A stretch of 64,000 nucleotides of DNA from positions 1 to 64,000 of IMG/VR virus record IMGVR_UViG_3300008085_000023, one strand, 5' to 3'. Positions 56,797-64,000 of the stretch are shown here, piece after piece (position 1 is the first letter of the stretch; each line of letters begins with the position of its first letter). The notes beneath the pieces are model-generated. The model was not told the DNA's origin. It saw only the letters and a program-made list of their open reading frames with translations, and searched no databases. Made by a program: the position numbers and the translations under genes. Source of the DNA: a virus.

Positions 56797-57438
56797 TCAG
56801 GTATCGTCTGAGGCCAACGATAGAAGAACTACAGCCAAAACATCCTCGTGAACCTCTTCCAAAGACCTATTAGCGTCAATTGTAGTGAAGCGGTGGTTAT
56901 TATCAGCCGCCGCGAGGCCACGATATCCATTAGCGACCCGATTATGGAAGTTCATGGATTCACGTTCCATACGATCGAGGTTTGCCTTTCCTTTGGTCTC
57001 TTTAAAGATACGTTCGAACCCTGCCTCAACTGGAAGGTCAAGTAAGATTGTAATATCCGGCATCAGTTCCTGCGTGGCAAATGAGTTGAGTGCTTCAATA
57101 TCTTTTAGCGGGAACTTCCGGCCATAGCCTTGATAAGCCATGGTTGAGTCGATGAAGCGATCTGAAAGCACAATTGTATTTTGCGCTAATGCCGGGCCAA
57201 TGACTTCATGGATGAGCTGTGCGCGACTTGCTTCGAACAATAGCGTTTCAGCTACTGGAGAAATGTTAGGTCCACATGAATCGTGCTGTAGGATATTCCG
57301 TACAGCTTCACCCATGATCGTTCCGCCTGGTTCTCGTACAGTGATCACATCGTAATTGCTAAGCGTTAAGCGATCAGCGAGCATTTTGAGTTGAGTTGAT
57401 TTGCCCGATCCTTCGGGTCCTTCGAATGTAATAAACAT
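56797..57438 (-). CDS. tmk: Thymidylate kinase, bacterial type
   Basis: FITFEGPEGSGKSTQ, REPGGT, DRFIDST.AYQGYGR, PD.T.LLD, DRME. Confidence 0.95.
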   Translation of the reverse strand: MFITFEGPEGSGKSTQLKMLADRLTLSNYDVITVREPGGTIMGEAVRNILQHDSCGPNISPVAETLLFEASRAQLIHEVIGPALAQNTIVLSDRFIDSTMAYQGYGRKFPLKDIEALNSFATQELMPDITILLDLPVEAGFERIFKETKGKANLDRMERESMNFHNRVANGYRGLAAADNNHRFTTIDANRSLEEVHEDVLAVVLLSLASDDT

Positions 57439-57862
57439 GTTTGCCTTTCTACGTACCACCCCCGATATTCAGGATAAATGGTTTCTAATTTACTTTATTG
57501 TTACTTTTTGATTTTGGATATTCTAGAGGCTTATCGTTAGAATTTTTAGCTTTCGTGCGACATACTCTGGAATTCCATGCTCAATACAGTGTTTTTTGAA
57601 TGTTGGCATTACGTTCTAAAATGAGTTCGCCATGCTCATTGAACACTTTATAAGACTTAGCGGCGGGGTTCTTATCGCCTAGACGTGATTTTACATAATT
57701 TTCTCGGTTAGATTTCTTCACCCCATACCACGGGCACTCTGAACCTCGTTTCCCTTTCCAATGCGATTTAGTCATACCAAAGCAGCCTTTACCATTCGCA
57801 TATGCCATATTGATATATAATGGATTACGCACTGCGTTAACGCTATGCTGTAGTGAATTTTC
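57431..57862 (-). pseudogene. Remnant of a Seg-like homing endonuclease (N-terminus lost, C-terminus frameshifted)
   Basis: ENSLQ...V.NPLYINMAYA..G.FG, G...PWYG.K.S, G.KNPAAK; continuation (KKHC.EHGI; YPEYRGWYV) lies in other frames. Confidence 0.65.
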
Positions 57863-57864
57863 TT

Positions 57865-59061
57865 TTACATGAATTCATTAAGTGTTACACACGGCATAGG
57901 CGCAATTGACGAAGTTTGCTTCTTATTATCCTGCACTAGGAATGACGTTGTTACTGTGTCTCGCTTGCCGTTTAGGTACGCTAGTATCTCGCTAGCGAGA
58001 TCAGCAGCCGTTGTCACTGGAACTGACTGGCATATCATATTTAAGTTCTTCAACCCACCTTGTAACTGAAAATCGCTAGGCATCTTCATAATTGCCAAAC
58101 ATTCACGGACTGTAAGGAAGCGTTCTTCGAAAGGATGCATCAATTGCGATGGCGTGTGTCCTACAAACGCACCTATGTGATCCTTTGGAAATTCACAGAT
58201 CTTTCGCATAATGTTTCCCCCAGACGCGAGCTTCACTTTGATTTCCCGACAACGCGCGGCTTTCTTGAGCTCACCTTGTTGTTCCATCCATTTAGCTACT
58301 TCATCATATGAGATGCCATTGTCTTCAATGAGGCTCATACCATTAATTGACTTCACCTGCTTCTCCACGATTTCTGCGTGGGTGAAGTTAGGATATATCT
58401 TCGTTCTAATGAAGCGGTAATATGGATCATCCATTGGCGCTCTATTATTAGCTGGCATATTCATAGGATCATCCTTCGATACAAACGCATTCAGAATTGT
58501 TTCATCAATCGTTTCATGCTTTCTGCGAAAGTACTTCAGGATAGGCGTCTCTGTACCTTTCCAAAAGAAATAGAATGACCTGTCCCTCACTTGACTCAAG
58601 CCATGCAGTATAGACTTAGTCTTGTAAAGCGAAAAGGTATAGCCATTATACTTCGCTATCTCACGTAGTCTATTCACGGTTGGCTCGCCCATCTTACTTG
58701 CAAGACGAGGTGCATTCTCTCCCCAAAAGACCTTTGGCTCTAGTTCAGATAGAACATACTTAGCCGTAATTGTCATCCAATCATTTGTAGTCGACTCAGC
58801 AGCAGCCGATGGTGATAATGAAGATAGCCCTGCGCATGGGCAGAGGGTTGTCACAATATCAACTGGCGCAAGCTTAAAAGACTTCGCTTCATTCTTATCA
58901 ATGAACATATACGGCACATTTGGGCGGTATGCACGGTATTGCGCATCATTCGCAGCAAAGGGAGTGTATGACAAGATATATTCAGGCGGTCTTTTGAAGA
59001 CGTGCTCCATAGCAATGGGCATTCCTCCAATTAGAGGTATAATTACGGCGTGTTTATTCAT
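57865..59061 (-). CDS. C5-cytosine methyltransferase-fold protein with atypical SAM-binding motifs
   Basis: Motif IV CPCAGLS, VI GENA, VIII QVRDR, HP.E.RFLTVRE; motif I reads IIPLIGG and motif X reads CQSV. Confidence 0.8.
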   Translation of the reverse strand: MNKHAVIIPLIGGMPIAMEHVFKRPPEYILSYTPFAANDAQYRAYRPNVPYMFIDKNEAKSFKLAPVDIVTTLCPCAGLSSLSPSAAAESTTNDWMTITAKYVLSELEPKVFWGENAPRLASKMGEPTVNRLREIAKYNGYTFSLYKTKSILHGLSQVRDRSFYFFWKGTETPILKYFRRKHETIDETILNAFVSKDDPMNMPANNRAPMDDPYYRFIRTKIYPNFTHAEIVEKQVKSINGMSLIEDNGISYDEVAKWMEQQGELKKAARCREIKVKLASGGNIMRKICEFPKDHIGAFVGHTPSQLMHPFEERFLTVRECLAIMKMPSDFQLQGGLKNLNMICQSVPVTTAADLASEILAYLNGKRDTVTTSFLVQDNKKQTSSIAPMPCVTLNEFM

Positions 59062-59623
59062 TTTTATGTTTTCTTTTTATGTGTAAGGCCACATTTCCTG
59101 CATTATTTTTATAATCACAATGCGGGCATTGGACCAATTTATGCATTGCACCTAAGCATTTTGCTCTCTTAATAGGATCTTGCATATGTTCTGTAGTACG
59201 GCGCGACCGTAACTTTTGCGAATCTTCACTCTTGTAGTAGTTTTCTTTAAAGGTTTCTCCCTGTTTTTTCTTAAGTGCTTCATCTTTCATACGTTCGCTT
59301 TGAGCCTTTGATCTATGTGCACTGAGATCTTCAATTCCTGAAATGTATGGGCCGCAACCACCGCCAGATGCAACGTTCCAACCCATCTTCTGTTTTGGTC
59401 TCAATTTCTTTTCCATTTGATAGCACTCTTCAATATCACCTTTAAAAATAATATCAACATCTTCTAACTTCAAATTATGAATTCGAATCCAATGATGCAT
59501 TGTACAATGTGGATCGCCTTGATGTGCTTTCCATCGTTTGTTAAGATGCTTCGTAACACCAATATAACCGTGATCTAAATCGCTACATTTAGGATCCCGA
59601 ATGTGATAAACATACCCTGTCAT
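59054..59623 (-). CDS. Free-standing GIY-YIG (Seg-like) homing endonuclease
   Basis: YVYHI...GYIGVT...RW..H, E..LRP...GWN...GG, C-terminal CPHC. Confidence 0.85.
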   Translation of the reverse strand: MTGYVYHIRDPKCSDLDHGYIGVTKHLNKRWKAHQGDPHCTMHHWIRIHNLKLEDVDIIFKGDIEECYQMEKKLRPKQKMGWNVASGGGCGPYISGIEDLSAHRSKAQSERMKDEALKKKQGETFKENYYKSEDSQKLRSRRTTEHMQDPIKRAKCLGAMHKLVQCPHCDYKNNAGNVALHIKRKHKNE

Positions 59624-59631
59624 AATTAACT

Positions 59632-59684
59632 CCTTGCGCTGGTTTGTGTTATTTATAACTAGCAAACTTTTCACCAGCGCAAGG
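59632..59684 (-). promoter_or_regulatory. RBS-sequestering hairpin with a late promoter in its loop
   Basis: 12-bp IR ccttgcgctggt/accagcgcaagg; TATAAATA at 59650-59657. Confidence 0.8.
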
Positions 59685-59701
59685 GCTGCTACAGAGCATG
59701 T

Positions 59702-60940
59702 TTAACTCGCAATTTTAGCCTCCGCAGTAGCGAACATTTCAGCAAAGACATTCTCTGCATCCTGATGTTCTTTGTAGAACTCATACGCCATGTGGCGCCA
59801 TTCATCTCTCATGCCATCATCGGCTTCGAGCTTCTTAATCAATTCAAATGCCTTAGACATTTCAACAATATCTTCAGCCAACCAAACTGTGCCGTTATCC
59901 TTACACTCAATAAGTGGATCACCTGACACACGGTGATGGCATTGCTTGCCATAAAGCTCGCGAAAAACTGGCACCACACCGGCACACACGATTTCCATGT
60001 GGGTGTACTCTAATGCCCGGCGCTGGAAGCGCGGCTTGAATACCGTCAGTTGATAACCAAAGCCACAACGTGACATGCGGTCGAGCATTTCAGCATGGAC
60101 GTAAGGTCCAAACACTTGGACAGGTTTTCCGTATGCATTAGACAAATCGTCAGTGGCAATATCATCATCTTTTCCAATATGCCCGTCAAACTCACCTAGC
60201 TGCCGGAAGCCAAGGTATGCCGGGGAACGTTCAATGCCCTCAAACGTTGTCAGGCAGCCATTACCCTTAAGATAGCAATCATGGAACTGGAACAGTTTAT
60301 CATAACCCTTCCAAGACGTGGTTCGGCCAATCCATTTGTGATGCTTGGCATCCTGAATTGAAATATCATCTTTCCAATATTGATCACGGATCGTATCGAA
60401 ATACAGACCAACCTGATAGTCGAAAATCTCAATTTCGTCTTCACCAAAGAAACTGCTAAGCTCGCCTACTTCTTTGTACTCTTTGACATACTGACCAAAG
60501 TCATTATCTGGGCTGAGTGAGAATATGACGCCGGCCTTGTCAATAACTTCATCCATACATTCATTCCTACGAATAGATGCACTCATGTGATCTAACTGCA
60601 CAAGCATTACAGGAACGCTAATGGCTTCAATCAAACGCTTGAAGTTTGCAATACATTCAACAGGATGTCCCTTGGATGGCAACGAATTGATGATGACATA
60701 ATCACACGTATTACACGCATGAATGACAGTGTCAACTGCAGCATTATCCTTAAACTTCACTAGCTCAATTGCGCTGTTATCATGAGCATTCTTTCGAGTC
60801 CATGCTTTATCCGCCACCGAAAAAATGGTCGTGTCATACCCATGTTCAATCAACCAACGGTTTTGCTCCAGGGTAAACTTTGTTACGCCACACCCTTCGG
60901 TGCCGCGGCCCAATATGATTGCTACTTTTTTGCTTCTCAT
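59702..60940 (-). CDS. agt: DNA alpha-glucosyltransferase (T4 Agt-like, GT-B fold)
   Basis: I.LGRG.EGCGVTKF.LEQ..W...G...DK.WTR...HD closely resembles the T4 Agt N-terminus; INS.P, IGR...WKG, GIERS, LEYTH.E. Confidence 0.9.
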   Translation of the reverse strand: MRSKKVAIILGRGTEGCGVTKFTLEQNRWLIEHGYDTTIFSVADKAWTRKNAHDNSAIELVKFKDNAAVDTVIHACNTCDYVIINSLPSKGHPVECIANFKRLIEAISVPVMLVQLDHMSASIRRNECMDEVIDKAGVIFSLSPDNDFGQYVKEYKEVGELSSFFGEDEIEIFDYQVGLYFDTIRDQYWKDDISIQDAKHHKWIGRTTSWKGYDKLFQFHDCYLKGNGCLTTFEGIERSPAYLGFRQLGEFDGHIGKDDDIATDDLSNAYGKPVQVFGPYVHAEMLDRMSRCGFGYQLTVFKPRFQRRALEYTHMEIVCAGVVPVFRELYGKQCHHRVSGDPLIECKDNGTVWLAEDIVEMSKAFELIKKLEADDGMRDEWRHMAYEFYKEHQDAENVFAEMFATAEAKIAS

Positions 60941-61417
60941 TTATTTCTCCTTATTATATCTTTTGTTTAGTGTGTTTTTTATAGCTTTAGCTATTGATAA
61001 TTCTTGCATTTGTCGAGCTAAAAATGAATCGGTAAATTGCTTTAAAAGTTTCATATCATCAATTCTCCATCCATGCATTGTTTGCCGTGATGTTGGTCGG
61101 AACAACCTAGCAGTGTATGTTTGAAAGTTGAATCGTCTGTCCTTTGGAACTTCGTATATTGATATTTGTGATGATTCATCATATGTTACAAATACCAATC
61201 GATCTACATTTAGGCATTTCTTTAATTGATTCGCTCTAATTGTGCACAATTCACCACTATGGTGATGCAATGGATATTGAGTTTTCACTTCAATAGTTTC
61301 GTTATTGGGTCCAATAAGATCCTTTTCTGCATCAAAATAATTTACAGAAAATTTAGCATTTAATAATTCTGCAACAATCTTCTCACCAATATCACCAAGT
61401 TGTTTGTTCATATTCAT
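60941..61417 (-). CDS. PD-(D/E)xK nuclease-like protein, AT-rich
   Basis: LG.IGE..V...KD......IEVKT. Confidence 0.65.
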   Translation of the reverse strand: MNMNKQLGDIGEKIVAELLNAKFSVNYFDAEKDLIGPNNETIEVKTQYPLHHHSGELCTIRANQLKKCLNVDRLVFVTYDESSQISIYEVPKDRRFNFQTYTARLFRPTSRQTMHGWRIDDMKLLKQFTDSFLARQMQELSIAKAIKNTLNKRYNKEK

Positions 61418-61426
61418 AATATTTCT

Positions 61427-61894
61427 CTACATCTCAATCGCAATATGATCAACGCCGGCTTCGTTAAAATAATCCAACGCTTTACGACAAGACTCCACCC
61501 AACGTTGGGGGAGCTGTTTAAGCTCAACTACTACTCGTTTTATTCCAACTTGAATAATGCCCTTAGCGCATTCCTCACATACAAACAACCCATGGATGTA
61601 TATCGTAGATCCTGTAAGAGACACACCCTTTGATGTGGCGTTATATATCGCGTTCATTTCACCATGAACCATTAATTCATATTTAAGTTTACGGATTTGC
61701 AAGCGGGGAATGCGATCCTGTATTCCTCTAGGGAATCCATTATAACCTAAGCTTAAGACATTCCTATCATCATCTACAATCACTGCTCCAACTTTCGTTG
61801 AAGGGTCCTTAGACCAGCCAGATATATGCTTCGCCAGATCTAAGAATCTTATATCCCACTTCGGGGAATACACAACTATTCTACTTTTATCCAT
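61427..61894 (-). CDS. cd: dCMP deaminase
   Basis: WSKDPSTKVGAVIV, GYNGFPRG, HGEMNAI, C..C. Confidence 0.93.
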   Translation of the reverse strand: MDKSRIVVYSPKWDIRFLDLAKHISGWSKDPSTKVGAVIVDDDRNVLSLGYNGFPRGIQDRIPRLQIRKLKYELMVHGEMNAIYNATSKGVSLTGSTIYIHGLFVCEECAKGIIQVGIKRVVVELKQLPQRWVESCRKALDYFNEAGVDHIAIEM

Positions 61895-61895
61895 A

Positions 61896-62504
61896 CTATG
61901 CCTTTTCCGGTCTGCAGTTATCAAAATGATATCTTGTCATATTTTGTTTCCCGCCAGATTTTCCACAATGAGGGCATTCAACAATCTGTTGTGGTGCAGA
62001 CTTACCCTTATTCCACGTAGGCTTTCCTGCGCGGTTTTCTGACATTTTCTTACGACTTTCAAGAGTATGCCCTCGGCCGAACATAGAATTCTTTTCACCA
62101 GCCATAGCTTTACTTTGAGCAGGGCGTTTTTGGCCAATGAGAGTCTTGGACATAATACTCGCTCTTTGTCTCTGTTCAGCTTTTCGTTCAGGTGTCCAAG
62201 CATCTCTAAGTTTTTGCTTGGTGTCATCATCATGAATAAAACCAATACGCCAACCTTGCGAACCGCCGACTGCTCGGTTCCACCCAATACCTTTAGTCGG
62301 TCGTAATTCAAATTCGCGTTCAAAACACTCTTCTCGAGAACCTTCATAAATGATTTTAACTTTTGCATTAGATGGTATATTTTTAGTCTTTAGCAAATGA
62401 GTTTTAAAACGGCGCGCAACATTTGCTGTAACTCCAACGTAACCATCGTTTTTAATGTTTTGACACGTTTCATCATACACCCAGTACACATAAGTAGTTT
62501 CCAT
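61896..62504 (-). CDS. Free-standing GIY-YIG homing endonuclease with NUMOD3-like repeats
   Basis: YVYWV...GYVGVT...RF..H, E..LRP...GWN...GG, GEKN.MFGR.HT.E.R.KMS, CPHCGK. Confidence 0.88.
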   Translation of the reverse strand: METTYVYWVYDETCQNIKNDGYVGVTANVARRFKTHLLKTKNIPSNAKVKIIYEGSREECFEREFELRPTKGIGWNRAVGGSQGWRIGFIHDDDTKQKLRDAWTPERKAEQRQRASIMSKTLIGQKRPAQSKAMAGEKNSMFGRGHTLESRKKMSENRAGKPTWNKGKSAPQQIVECPHCGKSGGKQNMTRYHFDNCRPEKA

Positions 62505-62507
62505 ATT

Positions 62508-62539
62508 CAGCCTTTCGTAATTATTTATACAAAAGGCTG
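62508..62539 (-). promoter_or_regulatory. RBS-sequestering hairpin with a late promoter in its loop
   Basis: cagccttt/aaaggctg IR; TATAAATA at 62522-62529. Confidence 0.75.
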
Positions 62540-62550
62540 TTTTGAAATGA

Positions 62551-63255
62551 TTATGCTTGGCTTCCCTCAGGCACTACAAGTTTGAAGTGTCGTTCATATA
62601 CATGCAGATTCATGACCTGCCAGATTAAATCGCCAGCTTCTAACTTGCGCTGAGGATCATCTCGATCACGCGCCATGTTCATATTCATTAGCACCATATT
62701 TTGCACATATCGCGCCCAAGAGTAATCATTCATATATCCGTAAACTACGTCATTGGAACGCATCTGTGATACCATATGAAGCTTACCATCTCTGATATAA
62801 AATGACTGAGCGTTAGTGCAGATGAAGTCATTCTTCCCATCTTCATTATATTCAAGCCACATGCTTGGCCGATTATAAATGATCTGAGCTCTGCGCGAAT
62901 CTGGATTCACAAGAAGCTCAGTGACAGCGTGCTTAAACTGGTTGTAATACTTCTTTGAAAAGATAAGCTTTCCATAATTAGAATTAACCTCACCGTGTTT
63001 GTTGGCCGATACCGCCCATGCTTTTGGAATCGATCCATAGATTTCACCTAGTGTATTAACATTAGCATCTTCAGATTCATACCACTTGATCTCTGCATCA
63101 ATATAAACGTTATTAGGGTTACCAAAGATTGCAGGTTCGTCTGCGATAAATGAAGCGCCAATGAGCTCAATGGTCTTAGCGCCTGTACGATCGATGGTAA
63201 AATCTTCATGCATTAGAGCTGTGCGGAAGTGTCTTCGTATCTGATCTACGTTCAT
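62551..63255 (-). CDS. gp42: dCMP hydroxymethylase (T4 gp42-like, thymidylate synthase fold)
   Basis: KTIE.IGASF.ADEP.IFG, NSNYG, DSRRA..IY.RPSM, DF.CTN, MRSNDVV.G..NDY.W with Asp at the dCMP-specificity position, LHVY.RHF. Confidence 0.92.
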   Translation of the reverse strand: MNVDQIRRHFRTALMHEDFTIDRTGAKTIELIGASFIADEPAIFGNPNNVYIDAEIKWYESEDANVNTLGEIYGSIPKAWAVSANKHGEVNSNYGKLIFSKKYYNQFKHAVTELLVNPDSRRAQIIYNRPSMWLEYNEDGKNDFICTNAQSFYIRDGKLHMVSQMRSNDVVYGYMNDYSWARYVQNMVLMNMNMARDRDDPQRKLEAGDLIWQVMNLHVYERHFKLVVPEGSQA

Positions 63256-63269
63256 AATTATATTTCCTT

Positions 63270-63716
63270 TCAATGCCGAGCGGCAATCTTGCGCTGTTTG
63301 TGCCAGTCTTTTTTACGTAATTCACCGAGCTCAAATGTACACTCAGTTAAAAGCTCCGGCTCAGACTTACCGGCAACCTCGGCGAATTCATCACCGAGTT
63401 TAGGTGACTGATCGCCTTTCCAACGATCATCCGCAGCCTTACCATACATTGTCTGAATCTTGAGAATGCAAAGCTGGGTAAGAGCATGGTCAATATGCGG
63501 GAGGCCACTCTCAGGATCATCATCTTCACCCAGAAAGAACTTCGTGAGGTGTCGCTGTATGGATCCATAGGTACGGGAATAAAGAGTCCCGTTGAGGTCC
63601 TCACGCCAATTGTTAGCACCGTACTTGGCTTTGCCCATTGCAAATACTTGAGCGATCGCCATAATACACTCAGGCGGAATCAGTTCGATCGTCGGTTTTC
63701 CTGCATCATTCTTCAT
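63270..63716 (-). CDS. DUF5664 dATP/dGTP diphosphohydrolase-like protein
   Basis: K.DAGKP...LIP, G..KYG.NNW, RHL..F..GED.DPESGL.H..HA. Confidence 0.85.
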   Translation of the reverse strand: MKNDAGKPTIELIPPECIMAIAQVFAMGKAKYGANNWREDLNGTLYSRTYGSIQRHLTKFFLGEDDDPESGLPHIDHALTQLCILKIQTMYGKAADDRWKGDQSPKLGDEFAEVAGKSEPELLTECTFELGELRKKDWHKQRKIAARH

Positions 63717-64000
63717 TACTGTTGCTCCCCTAAAATCATTGGAATGTCGCCGTGATTGCCTTTATGATTTGGATTCTTCCAGCCCAAAGGTTTAATCAAA
63801 TCTGGGAGACCAAATTTATTAGGACGCTCAGCTTTAACACCAGGCTCCTTTGCCATATTAGCATTAAGGATTGTATCCCATGCCTTATGTGCATCAACAC
63901 CCAGAACTTCAAGTGTTCCAATTGCAAAGACACACAAATCAATGAGACCATCAACCACTTCTTCACTGTCGCCTTGTACTAAAGCAGCAGAGAAAGTCTC
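63716..64000 (-). CDS. MazG-like all-alpha NTP pyrophosphohydrolase (partial; 5' end outside window)
   Basis: EEVVDGLIDL..FA.GT, V/I..ANM.K, DL.KP.GW..P. Confidence 0.8.
   Translation of the reverse strand, partial: ETFSAALVQGDSEEVVDGLIDLCVFAIGTLEVLGVDAHKAWDTILNANMAKEPGVKAERPNKFGLPDLIKPLGWKNPNHKGNHGDIPMILGEQQ

Follow-up and report, generated by a model that had tools for sequence, protein, structure and literature searches.

Our analysis of a viral protein with the fold of a DNA cytosine-C5 methyltransferase (MTase) showed that it represents a real, widespread and uncharacterised variant of this fold that is embedded in 5-hydroxymethylcytosine (hmC) pathways and possibly has a new activity. 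The protein (398 aa; PF00145, E 7e-19) is encoded on the minus strand at 57865..59061 of the window, the whole 64,000-nucleotide stretch of DNA that was analysed, which covers bases 1-64000 of a virus record that is 141,905 bp long and has direct terminal repeats (G000; IMG/VR record IMGVR_UViG_3300008085_000023). Its catalytic motifs are intact while its pocket for the cofactor S-adenosylmethionine (SAM) is rebuilt, making it a candidate SAM-free hmC editor. The protein most likely edits hmC rather than methylating cytosine, and our best guess is that it removes the hydroxymethyl group. The initial annotation of this region had described a co-oriented cluster of a gp42-like enzyme with the dCMP-specifying Asp, a DNA alpha-glucosyltransferase (AGT) homologue and the MTase-fold protein, and this description holds, as all three genes lie on the minus strand and the AGT homologue matches PF11440 (E 2e-73).

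Fold, motifs and cofactor pocket of the family

AlphaFold2 modelling of the window protein on a 134-sequence alignment predicted the two-lobed C5-MTase fold (predicted local distance difference test 96.3, predicted template modelling (TM) score 0.93), in line with the initial annotation. The best solved structural matches were M.HaeIII (1dct; Z 25.8, root mean square deviation 3.3, 281 residues aligned) and M.HhaI (Z 25.7), both at 14–18% identity. A sequence search of the PDB with the single window protein returned no match and a profile search returned canonical MTases only, while a scan of prokaryote genomes with one family member, which was pattern-based and weak, found no relative. When clustered at 90% the family comprised 2,038 clusters, and at 50% there were 233 with E < 1e-30; it is frequent among marine and freshwater phages. 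As had been anticipated, its members carry plain methyltransferase labels in databases, so that the family is mislabelled everywhere as a plain cytosine methylase. A search of the literature found no description of the family, although an earlier mention in Iyer 2013 (NAR) is possible.

Residue conservation was counted over 134 diverse members with 26–48% identity, and showed that the catalytic side of the enzyme is fixed. Motif IV (PCAGLS, 58822..58839; this and the following motifs on the minus strand) holds the catalytic Cys76 (99%), motif VI (GENAP, 58708..58722) holds Glu115 (100%), and in motif VIII (QVRDR for QxRxR, 58579..58593) both Arg159 and Arg161 are conserved at 100%, which bears out the earlier statement that catalytic and base-recognition motifs are kept. 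Because these residues are 99–100% conserved, we regard the family as an active-type rather than a dead enzyme. The same conservation across diverse members rules out a degenerate pseudogene or a one-genome oddity.

The cofactor side has changed at several positions. The motif I equivalent is IPLIGG (residues 8–13, 59023..59040), with I8-P9-L10-I11-G12-G13 placed on the FxGxGG loop by the starts of the structural alignments and by alignment of the sequence to Dcm and a pair of phage MTases. The family form is [IV]PL[IV]GG (I/V8, P9 98%, L10 97%, G12 98%, G13 96%) rather than FxGxG, and Leu10 replaces the first Gly of canonical motif I in 97% of members. In the motif II region (residues 29–35, 58957..58977) the ribose-binding Glu is absent, as position 33 is occupied by S, D, P, K or T (D 16%) and strand 2 ends without a conserved acid; the family instead conserves S31, Y/F/W32, F35, N38 and D/E39, which include a family-specific S-Y-x-x-F. 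The motif III Asp, which binds adenine in SAM-dependent enzymes, is retained (D55 73%, E 7%). Next to the catalytic residues, A117 replaces the ENV valine of motif VI in 96% of members (E115-N-A) and the Gln of motif IV is replaced by Ala or Ser. Motif X of the window protein reads CQSV (58021..58032), in which Gln345 (97%) occupies the position of M.HhaI Asn304 and CmoX Arg350 and is followed in the family by N346 (94%).

These motif changes are family-wide and do not reflect drift. The initial annotation correctly saw that both SAM-binding motifs are altered, [IV]PL[IV]GG and Gln345 being found throughout the family; in its reading of motif X, the Gln change proved general, whereas the Ser is a rare variant of the window protein and the family form is [CA]QNV. 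Its list of changed motifs was also incomplete, as it lacked the loss of the motif II Glu, the change of ENV to ENA and that of the motif IV Gln to Ala or Ser. Judged from these motifs, the family would be C5-MTase-like up to the covalent adduct but departs from SAM-dependent enzymes at three elements of the SAM site (motifs I, II and X).

Comparison with CmoX, a phage C5-MTase homologue of solved structure, was used to evaluate the pocket. The cofactor contacts of CmoX are Phe25, Glu47, Phe48 and Asp69, and its residue at the M.HhaI Asn304 position touches the transferred group (PMC12783734). Three of these four adenosine/cofactor contacts are lost in our family and the Asp alone is kept (D55, 73%), and because of this loss the family probably does not use SAM in the ordinary way. 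Membership of the CmoX group itself was ruled out by Gln345 and LCPC, where CmoX has Arg350 and SPPC.

Linkage to hydroxymethyl-dCMP synthesis in phages and copies in copepods

Gene neighbourhoods were surveyed in 80 IMG/VR loci close to the window protein and additionally in distant clades. In the 80 loci the MTase-fold gene ends a gp42–deaminase–glycosyltransferase (GT) operon, usually directly after the GT, and every gp42 with a readable motif carries the dCMP-specifying Asp. For the test of co-occurrence with gp42 suggested at the outset, a thymidylate synthase (TS) homologue of this Asp type was found in 38 of 38 MTase-centred loci of at least 16 kb, many of which are near kin but which represent at least six distinct lineages. 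Asp-type TS homologues were also found in S-TIM5, Pseudoalteromonas phage XG4, phage G, G008–G010, L164 and jumbo phages, where the linkage is repeated, and they belong to differing subtypes with Pfam scores of about 50 to 190 bits. Exceptions to the linkage are the fragments L269, G011 and L108. The linkage is one-way, as the family was present in only six of more than 1,000 gp42-positive cultured records.

The same combination recurs in unrelated phages. In S-TIM5, a myovirus of an unrelated lineage, a 32% orthologue is the sole PF00145 gene and lies four genes from a ThyA-like TS with the Asp, accompanied by a separate ThyX and an AGT. XG4 encodes gp42, two GT-like genes and the MTase-fold gene in one run. 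Phage G gp301 is an outgroup member (hhalign 99.8%; best viral fold match) with a partly changed motif I, and adjoins two AGTs and a second, Asp-type TS. Bacillus phage G (L099:225-11062, gp301–gp313, and L102) has in this region two AGT homologues, a sugar kinase, a HAD protein, a nucleotidyltransferase and the Asp-type TS. Two tandem MTase-fold paralogues in a jumbo-phage locus (L113:9962-12378) have different target-recognition regions, which suggests differing sequence specificities.

The glycosylation cassette next to the MTase-fold gene, by comparison, varies: AGT alone, AGT with an epimerase and UDP-sugar dehydrogenase, a GT of unknown kind with UDP-galactopyranose mutase, TAGT, inositol-phosphate synthase with HAD, HMUDK_hel and a GT-like protein, or a kinase with a nucleotidyltransferase. 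A cassette of myo-inositol-1-phosphate synthase, HAD phosphatase, HMUDK_hel and a GT-like gene recurs beside an Asp-type TS (L053:6164-9995, L116:6324-9877, L142:6299-9990, L164:6622-12670) and suggests an inositol-modified cytosine; in L164 one family member in such a cluster is fused to the HMUDK_hel helical domain. GT-like genes with UDP-galactopyranose mutase, and epimerase, also occur in hmC operons (L072:7115-10000, L084:6825-10004, L127:7897-10010), for which furanosyl-hmC is a possible product.

The Asp-type TS in all 38 long loci, together with the same triad in unrelated phages, supports the assignment of the family to the hmC pathway. As the active site is invariant and the dCMP-C5 synthase constant while the cassette varies freely, the likely substrate is hmC in DNA, the intermediate that these pathways share.

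Longer family members were identified in the transcriptome of the copepod Neocalanus flemingeri (P0299, P0332), and single-ORF (open reading frame), intronless copies were found among intron-split animal genes on marine contigs (L165:1377-3191, L166:8566-10893, L083:297-2093). The assignment to copepods follows the record for N. flemingeri and kinship for the other copies. In a tree they fall among phage proteins as one branch (Shimodaira–Hasegawa-like approximate likelihood ratio support 93), which belongs to a larger group with support 99; the phages in this group again have an Asp-type TS. All catalytic and pocket residues are kept and some copies bear CXXC or C2H2 fingers. The tree points to an apparent phage-to-animal gene transfer into calanoid copepods, which retain DNMT1 and lack DNMT3 (PMC8821070). 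Since copepods lack a gp42 or GT pathway, the copepod substrate must be C or TET-made hmC; this speaks against a donor specific to the pathway, yet it is compatible with an eraser as well as with a writer.

Candidate activity and alternative explanations

We infer the following pathway from homology to T-even phages and from the motifs and fold of the family. gp42 would make hydroxymethyl-dCMP (hm-dCMP), which would be phosphorylated, incorporated into DNA as hmC and glycosylated by the alpha-GT. The MTase-fold protein would flip the base, Glu115, Arg159 and Arg161 holding it while Cys76 adds to C6. In a rebuilt pocket lacking a methyl donor, C5 would be protonated and the hydroxymethyl group would leave as formaldehyde, giving plain C; the smaller residues by C5 (ENA for ENV, Ala for the motif IV Gln) would leave room for the 5-substituent, and Gln345 could hold its hydroxyl. 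Such a step may serve to clear bare hmC that is missed by the glycosyltransferase and attacked by modification-dependent nucleases such as McrBC, with a context-specific pattern of glycosyl-hmC and C as the outcome. We assign a probability of roughly 0.4 to the family being a SAM-free, sequence-selective dehydroxymethylase that converts unglycosylated hmC to C. Removal is preferred because it needs no donor, fits the smaller residues beside C5 and gives the enzyme a purpose. Without SAM, C5-MTases perform comparable reactions in vitro, where M.HhaI, M.SssI and DNMT3 strip formaldehyde from hmC and thiols can be coupled to hmC. We know of no dedicated natural hmC dehydroxymethylase, and none for these SAM-free reactions was found in the literature searched.

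Several observations weigh against removal. The motif III Asp and the Gly-Gly loop are still present in the family, and phage G gp301 retains the Phe and possibly the Glu. T-even phages have gp42 and AGT yet lack the MTase-fold gene, the 25-kb fragment L269 has the MTase-fold gene without TS or GT nearby, and undoing a modification already paid for would be costly. The loss of DNMT3 in copepods (PMC8821070) means that the copepod copy could be a replacement writer. The case of S-TIM5 adds two further points, of which one is that it possesses a TS type able to make 5-methyl-dCMP and the other concerns the wording used for its DNA.

The DNA of S-TIM5 is reportedly called 'methylated', which taken literally would favour a methylase, and Sabehi et al. 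2012 reportedly found that its cytosines are modified only after purines. If this purine-C pattern holds, nucleotide-pool substitution would give it only together with a sequence-specific eraser. S-TIM5 does not decide between eraser and methylase, because the literal wording favours a methylase and ThyA-like Asp enzymes can make 5-methyl-dCMP. The latter capacity is described for the ThyA-like TS type (10.1101/2024.12.05.627091), to which the S-TIM5 enzyme belongs. In the S-TIM5 gene annotated as ThyA, the Asn177 position is occupied by Asp, and the phage also encodes an AGT (L001:8766-9602, L161:6754-8034). As Asp-type TS and AGT are both present, the 'methylated' cytosine may be glycosyl-hmC.

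Synonymous-site composition was set aside as a guide to the target context, as GpC is depleted in control phages without any C5-MTase (HTVC008M, S-ShM2) just as it is in Melnitz, and T4 looks like the phages that carry the family. Most phages with an hmC pathway, T4 among them, had an excess of synonymous antisense GpC (+0.4 to +1.1, though just +0.1 in G001), whereas three marine T4-like phages that lack the MTase-fold family had a deficit (-0.6 to -1.0). C/T differences between S-TIM5 and S-TIM54 showed no purine/pyrimidine split, and analysis of tetramer bias gave nothing specific.

The protein had initially been proposed either to add a non-methyl group to hmC or to edit it; editing stands as the best reading, while addition giving a new base has fared less well. 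In SAM-free coupling the Cys-C6 adduct would expel water and a small nucleophile (thiol, amine or polyol) would trap the exocyclic methylene, giving a new base beside glycosyl-hmC. C5-MTases without SAM carry out such chemistry in vitro, and coupling would explain equally the loss of SAM contacts and the linkage to hm-dCMP synthesis; new invariant polar residues (N38, D/E39, H41, N93, K277, Q345, N346, N379) could form a co-substrate site, and the L164 fusion to the HMUDK helical domain lies in an inositol-synthase cluster. We nevertheless consider coupling unlikely, as no constant donor-making gene stands alongside and each cassette already has its own glycosyltransferase. Donor-making neighbours change completely while the site is invariant, and copepod copies keep an identical site in hosts without the pathway; both observations agree better with removal, or with a small co-substrate that is present everywhere. 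Coupling with all C present as hmC or adduct would also not give the pattern reported for S-TIM5, in which C after pyrimidines is unmodified.

Alternatively, the protein could be a true methyltransferase whose SAM site has diverged or which uses a SAM analogue, as CmoX does, and it would then methylate the C left by partial replacement of dCTP with hm-dCTP. The complete predicted C5-MTase fold agrees with this, as does its being the sole PF00145 gene of S-TIM5, whose DNA is reportedly 'methylated' at purine-C. The copepod copies with CXXC or C2H2 fingers in calanoids without DNMT3 (PMC8821070), the strong CpG depletion of Eurytemora (PMC11706791) and the example of CmoX, in which an altered motif X means an altered donor and not the lack of one (PMC12783734), point the same way. 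What makes a methylase improbable is the family-wide replacement of the motif I Phe and first Gly and of the motif II Glu and its aromatic neighbour, all of which CmoX-type proteins keep, the absence of a constant donor-synthesis gene beside the MTase-fold gene, and the fact that all lineages examined couple it to GTs and to TS homologues specific for dCMP, which a plain methylase would not explain. A third possibility is that the Cys adduct serves another reaction, either deamination that turns hmC into hmU or a reduction to 5-methylcytosine by a hydride donor, or that the protein is a helper which flips the base and hands hmC over to the GT. This group of explanations would find precedent in SAM-free or motif-I-mutant C5-MTases that deaminate cytosine, would suit a gene that mostly follows the GT and is once fused to a pathway domain, and in the case of reduction would fit the 'methylated' reported for S-TIM5. 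However, deaminating bases in duplex DNA is mutagenic, and the composition test, itself uninformative, pointed to no loss of C in a particular context. A pure helper would not need the invariant Cys, and no signature of nucleotide binding, as a hydride donor would require, was found. We consider this group of explanations unlikely.

Dehydroxymethylation thus remains our preferred reading. A broader form, in which the family would be the first dedicated natural hmC dehydroxymethylase, phages would sculpt glycosyl-hmC patterns with it, and calanoid copepods would have domesticated a copy with CXXC/C2H2 fingers so that TET and the enzyme demethylate DNA directly without base excision, appears somewhat doubtful. 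If hmC is removed or rewritten without SAM, the family would add a new step to phage DNA modification and offer a natural example of a reaction whose role in direct DNA demethylation has long been debated. It might then also be of use for mapping or editing hmC, and S-TIM5, XG4 and the more distant phage G are cultured carriers. If the family is a methylase instead, it would have a different way of binding its cofactor and the phage-to-copepod transfer would still stand.

The gene cluster of the window and comparison with known systems

Judged by its gene set and its gp42 and AGT homologies, G000 is a complete T4-like phage, with baseplate, tail, ssDNA-binding, helicase, RecA-like, polymerase, clamp and capsid-like proteins read from its ORF list. 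The minus-strand order is MazG-like gene, dGTP-diphosphohydrolase-family gene, gp42, homing endonuclease, dCMP deaminase, PD-(D/E)xK-like ORF, AGT, second homing endonuclease, MTase-fold gene and dTMP-family kinase; the initial annotation had omitted the deaminase, the PD-(D/E)xK-like ORF, both homing endonucleases, the kinase and the two pyrophosphohydrolases. The dCMP hydroxymethylase gp42 (62551..63255), which probably starts with the ATG at 63255, shares about 49% identity with its T-even counterparts and carries the dCMP-specifying Asp, at the TS Asn177 position, in the stretch RSNDVVYGYMND at 62725-62760. The AGT homologue (59702..60940), with glucose as its putative sugar, is 37.5% identical to T4 a-gt and up to 41% to other T-even-type alpha-GTs. 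Between it and the dCMP deaminase (61427..61924; PF00383, E 6e-20) lies a PD-(D/E)xK nuclease-like ORF (60941..61417; feature score 0.95, TM 0.55–0.62 to PDDEXK clusters, no Pfam match) that could be a host-DNA nuclease or a mobile element.

The thymidylate-kinase-family dNMP kinase (56797..57459; PF02223, E 1e-43) is a candidate hm-dCMP kinase, and a gene of this family adjoins the MTase-fold gene in locus L003 too. Upstream of gp42, two NTP pyrophosphohydrolases are candidates for the dCTPase role, a dATP/dGTP diphosphohydrolase-family protein that may remove dCTP (63270..63716; PF18909, E 2e-23) and a MazG/PRA-PH-like protein (63716..64000; ORF start at genome position 64150). Domain matches identify two passengers, a GIY-YIG homing endonuclease between AGT and the MTase-fold gene (59054..59674), which is near-absent from related loci, and a GIY-YIG/NUMOD3 homing endonuclease (61896..62504). 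All of these genes are on the minus strand. A genome search of G000 found a single TS-family gene, a single PF00145 gene and no ThyX; lacking ThyA and ThyX, the phage may draw dTMP from host synthesis or from its own deaminase route. Outside the window, at about 65300-70750, DNA polymerase B appears by eye to be spread over several ORFs, which are separated by pieces resembling inteins and endonucleases.

The pathway around the MTase-fold gene appears to be an ordinary T-even-like hmC-glycosylation system. It shares with the T-even glucosyl-hmC pathway (gp42, gp1, gp56, alpha/beta-GT) the gp42 (49%), the alpha-GT (38–41%) and candidates for the kinase and pyrophosphohydrolase, but T-even phages lack the MTase-fold family, and the cluster described here has a kinase of the bacterial dTMP-kinase family and no beta-GT. 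A C5-MTase gene accompanied by glycosyltransferases and sugar enzymes, and sequence-specific modified C, are also features of the phage C5-MT, TET and GT route (Burke et al. 2021, PMC8256090), in which hmC is made on DNA by methylation and then oxidation, whereas our cluster has a dCMP-level synthase; a search for PF12851 (TET/JBP), which included no TET-positive control, found no match in G000, S-TIM5, XG4, phage G or G007.

CmoX (Synechococcus phage S-B43, PDB 8YF3; PMC12783734) resembles the family in being a phage C5-MTase homologue that has been turned to a modification other than methylation and is altered at the Asn304 position. It differs in keeping its adenosine contacts, Arg350 and SPPC, where the family has lost contacts, Gln and CPC or PPC, and its partners are CmoA and CmoY rather than a gp42-type TS and GTs; CmoA (Cx-SAM synthase) was not found among the annotated cluster genes, no genome-wide search having been made. 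With SAM-dependent C5-MTases (M.HhaI, M.HaeIII, Dcm; PF00145) the family has in common the fold, the catalytic Cys, the Glu, two Arg, the motif III Asp and motif IX, but motif I, the motif II Glu, the ENV valine and the motif X Asn are all replaced, and the family has a C-terminal extension with a conserved Q-x-N and its tie to hm-dCMP synthesis. The SAM-free in vitro reactions on hmC correspond to the chemistry proposed here, with the difference that those are side reactions of SAM-binding enzymes, while in this family the reaction would be the main job of the enzyme.

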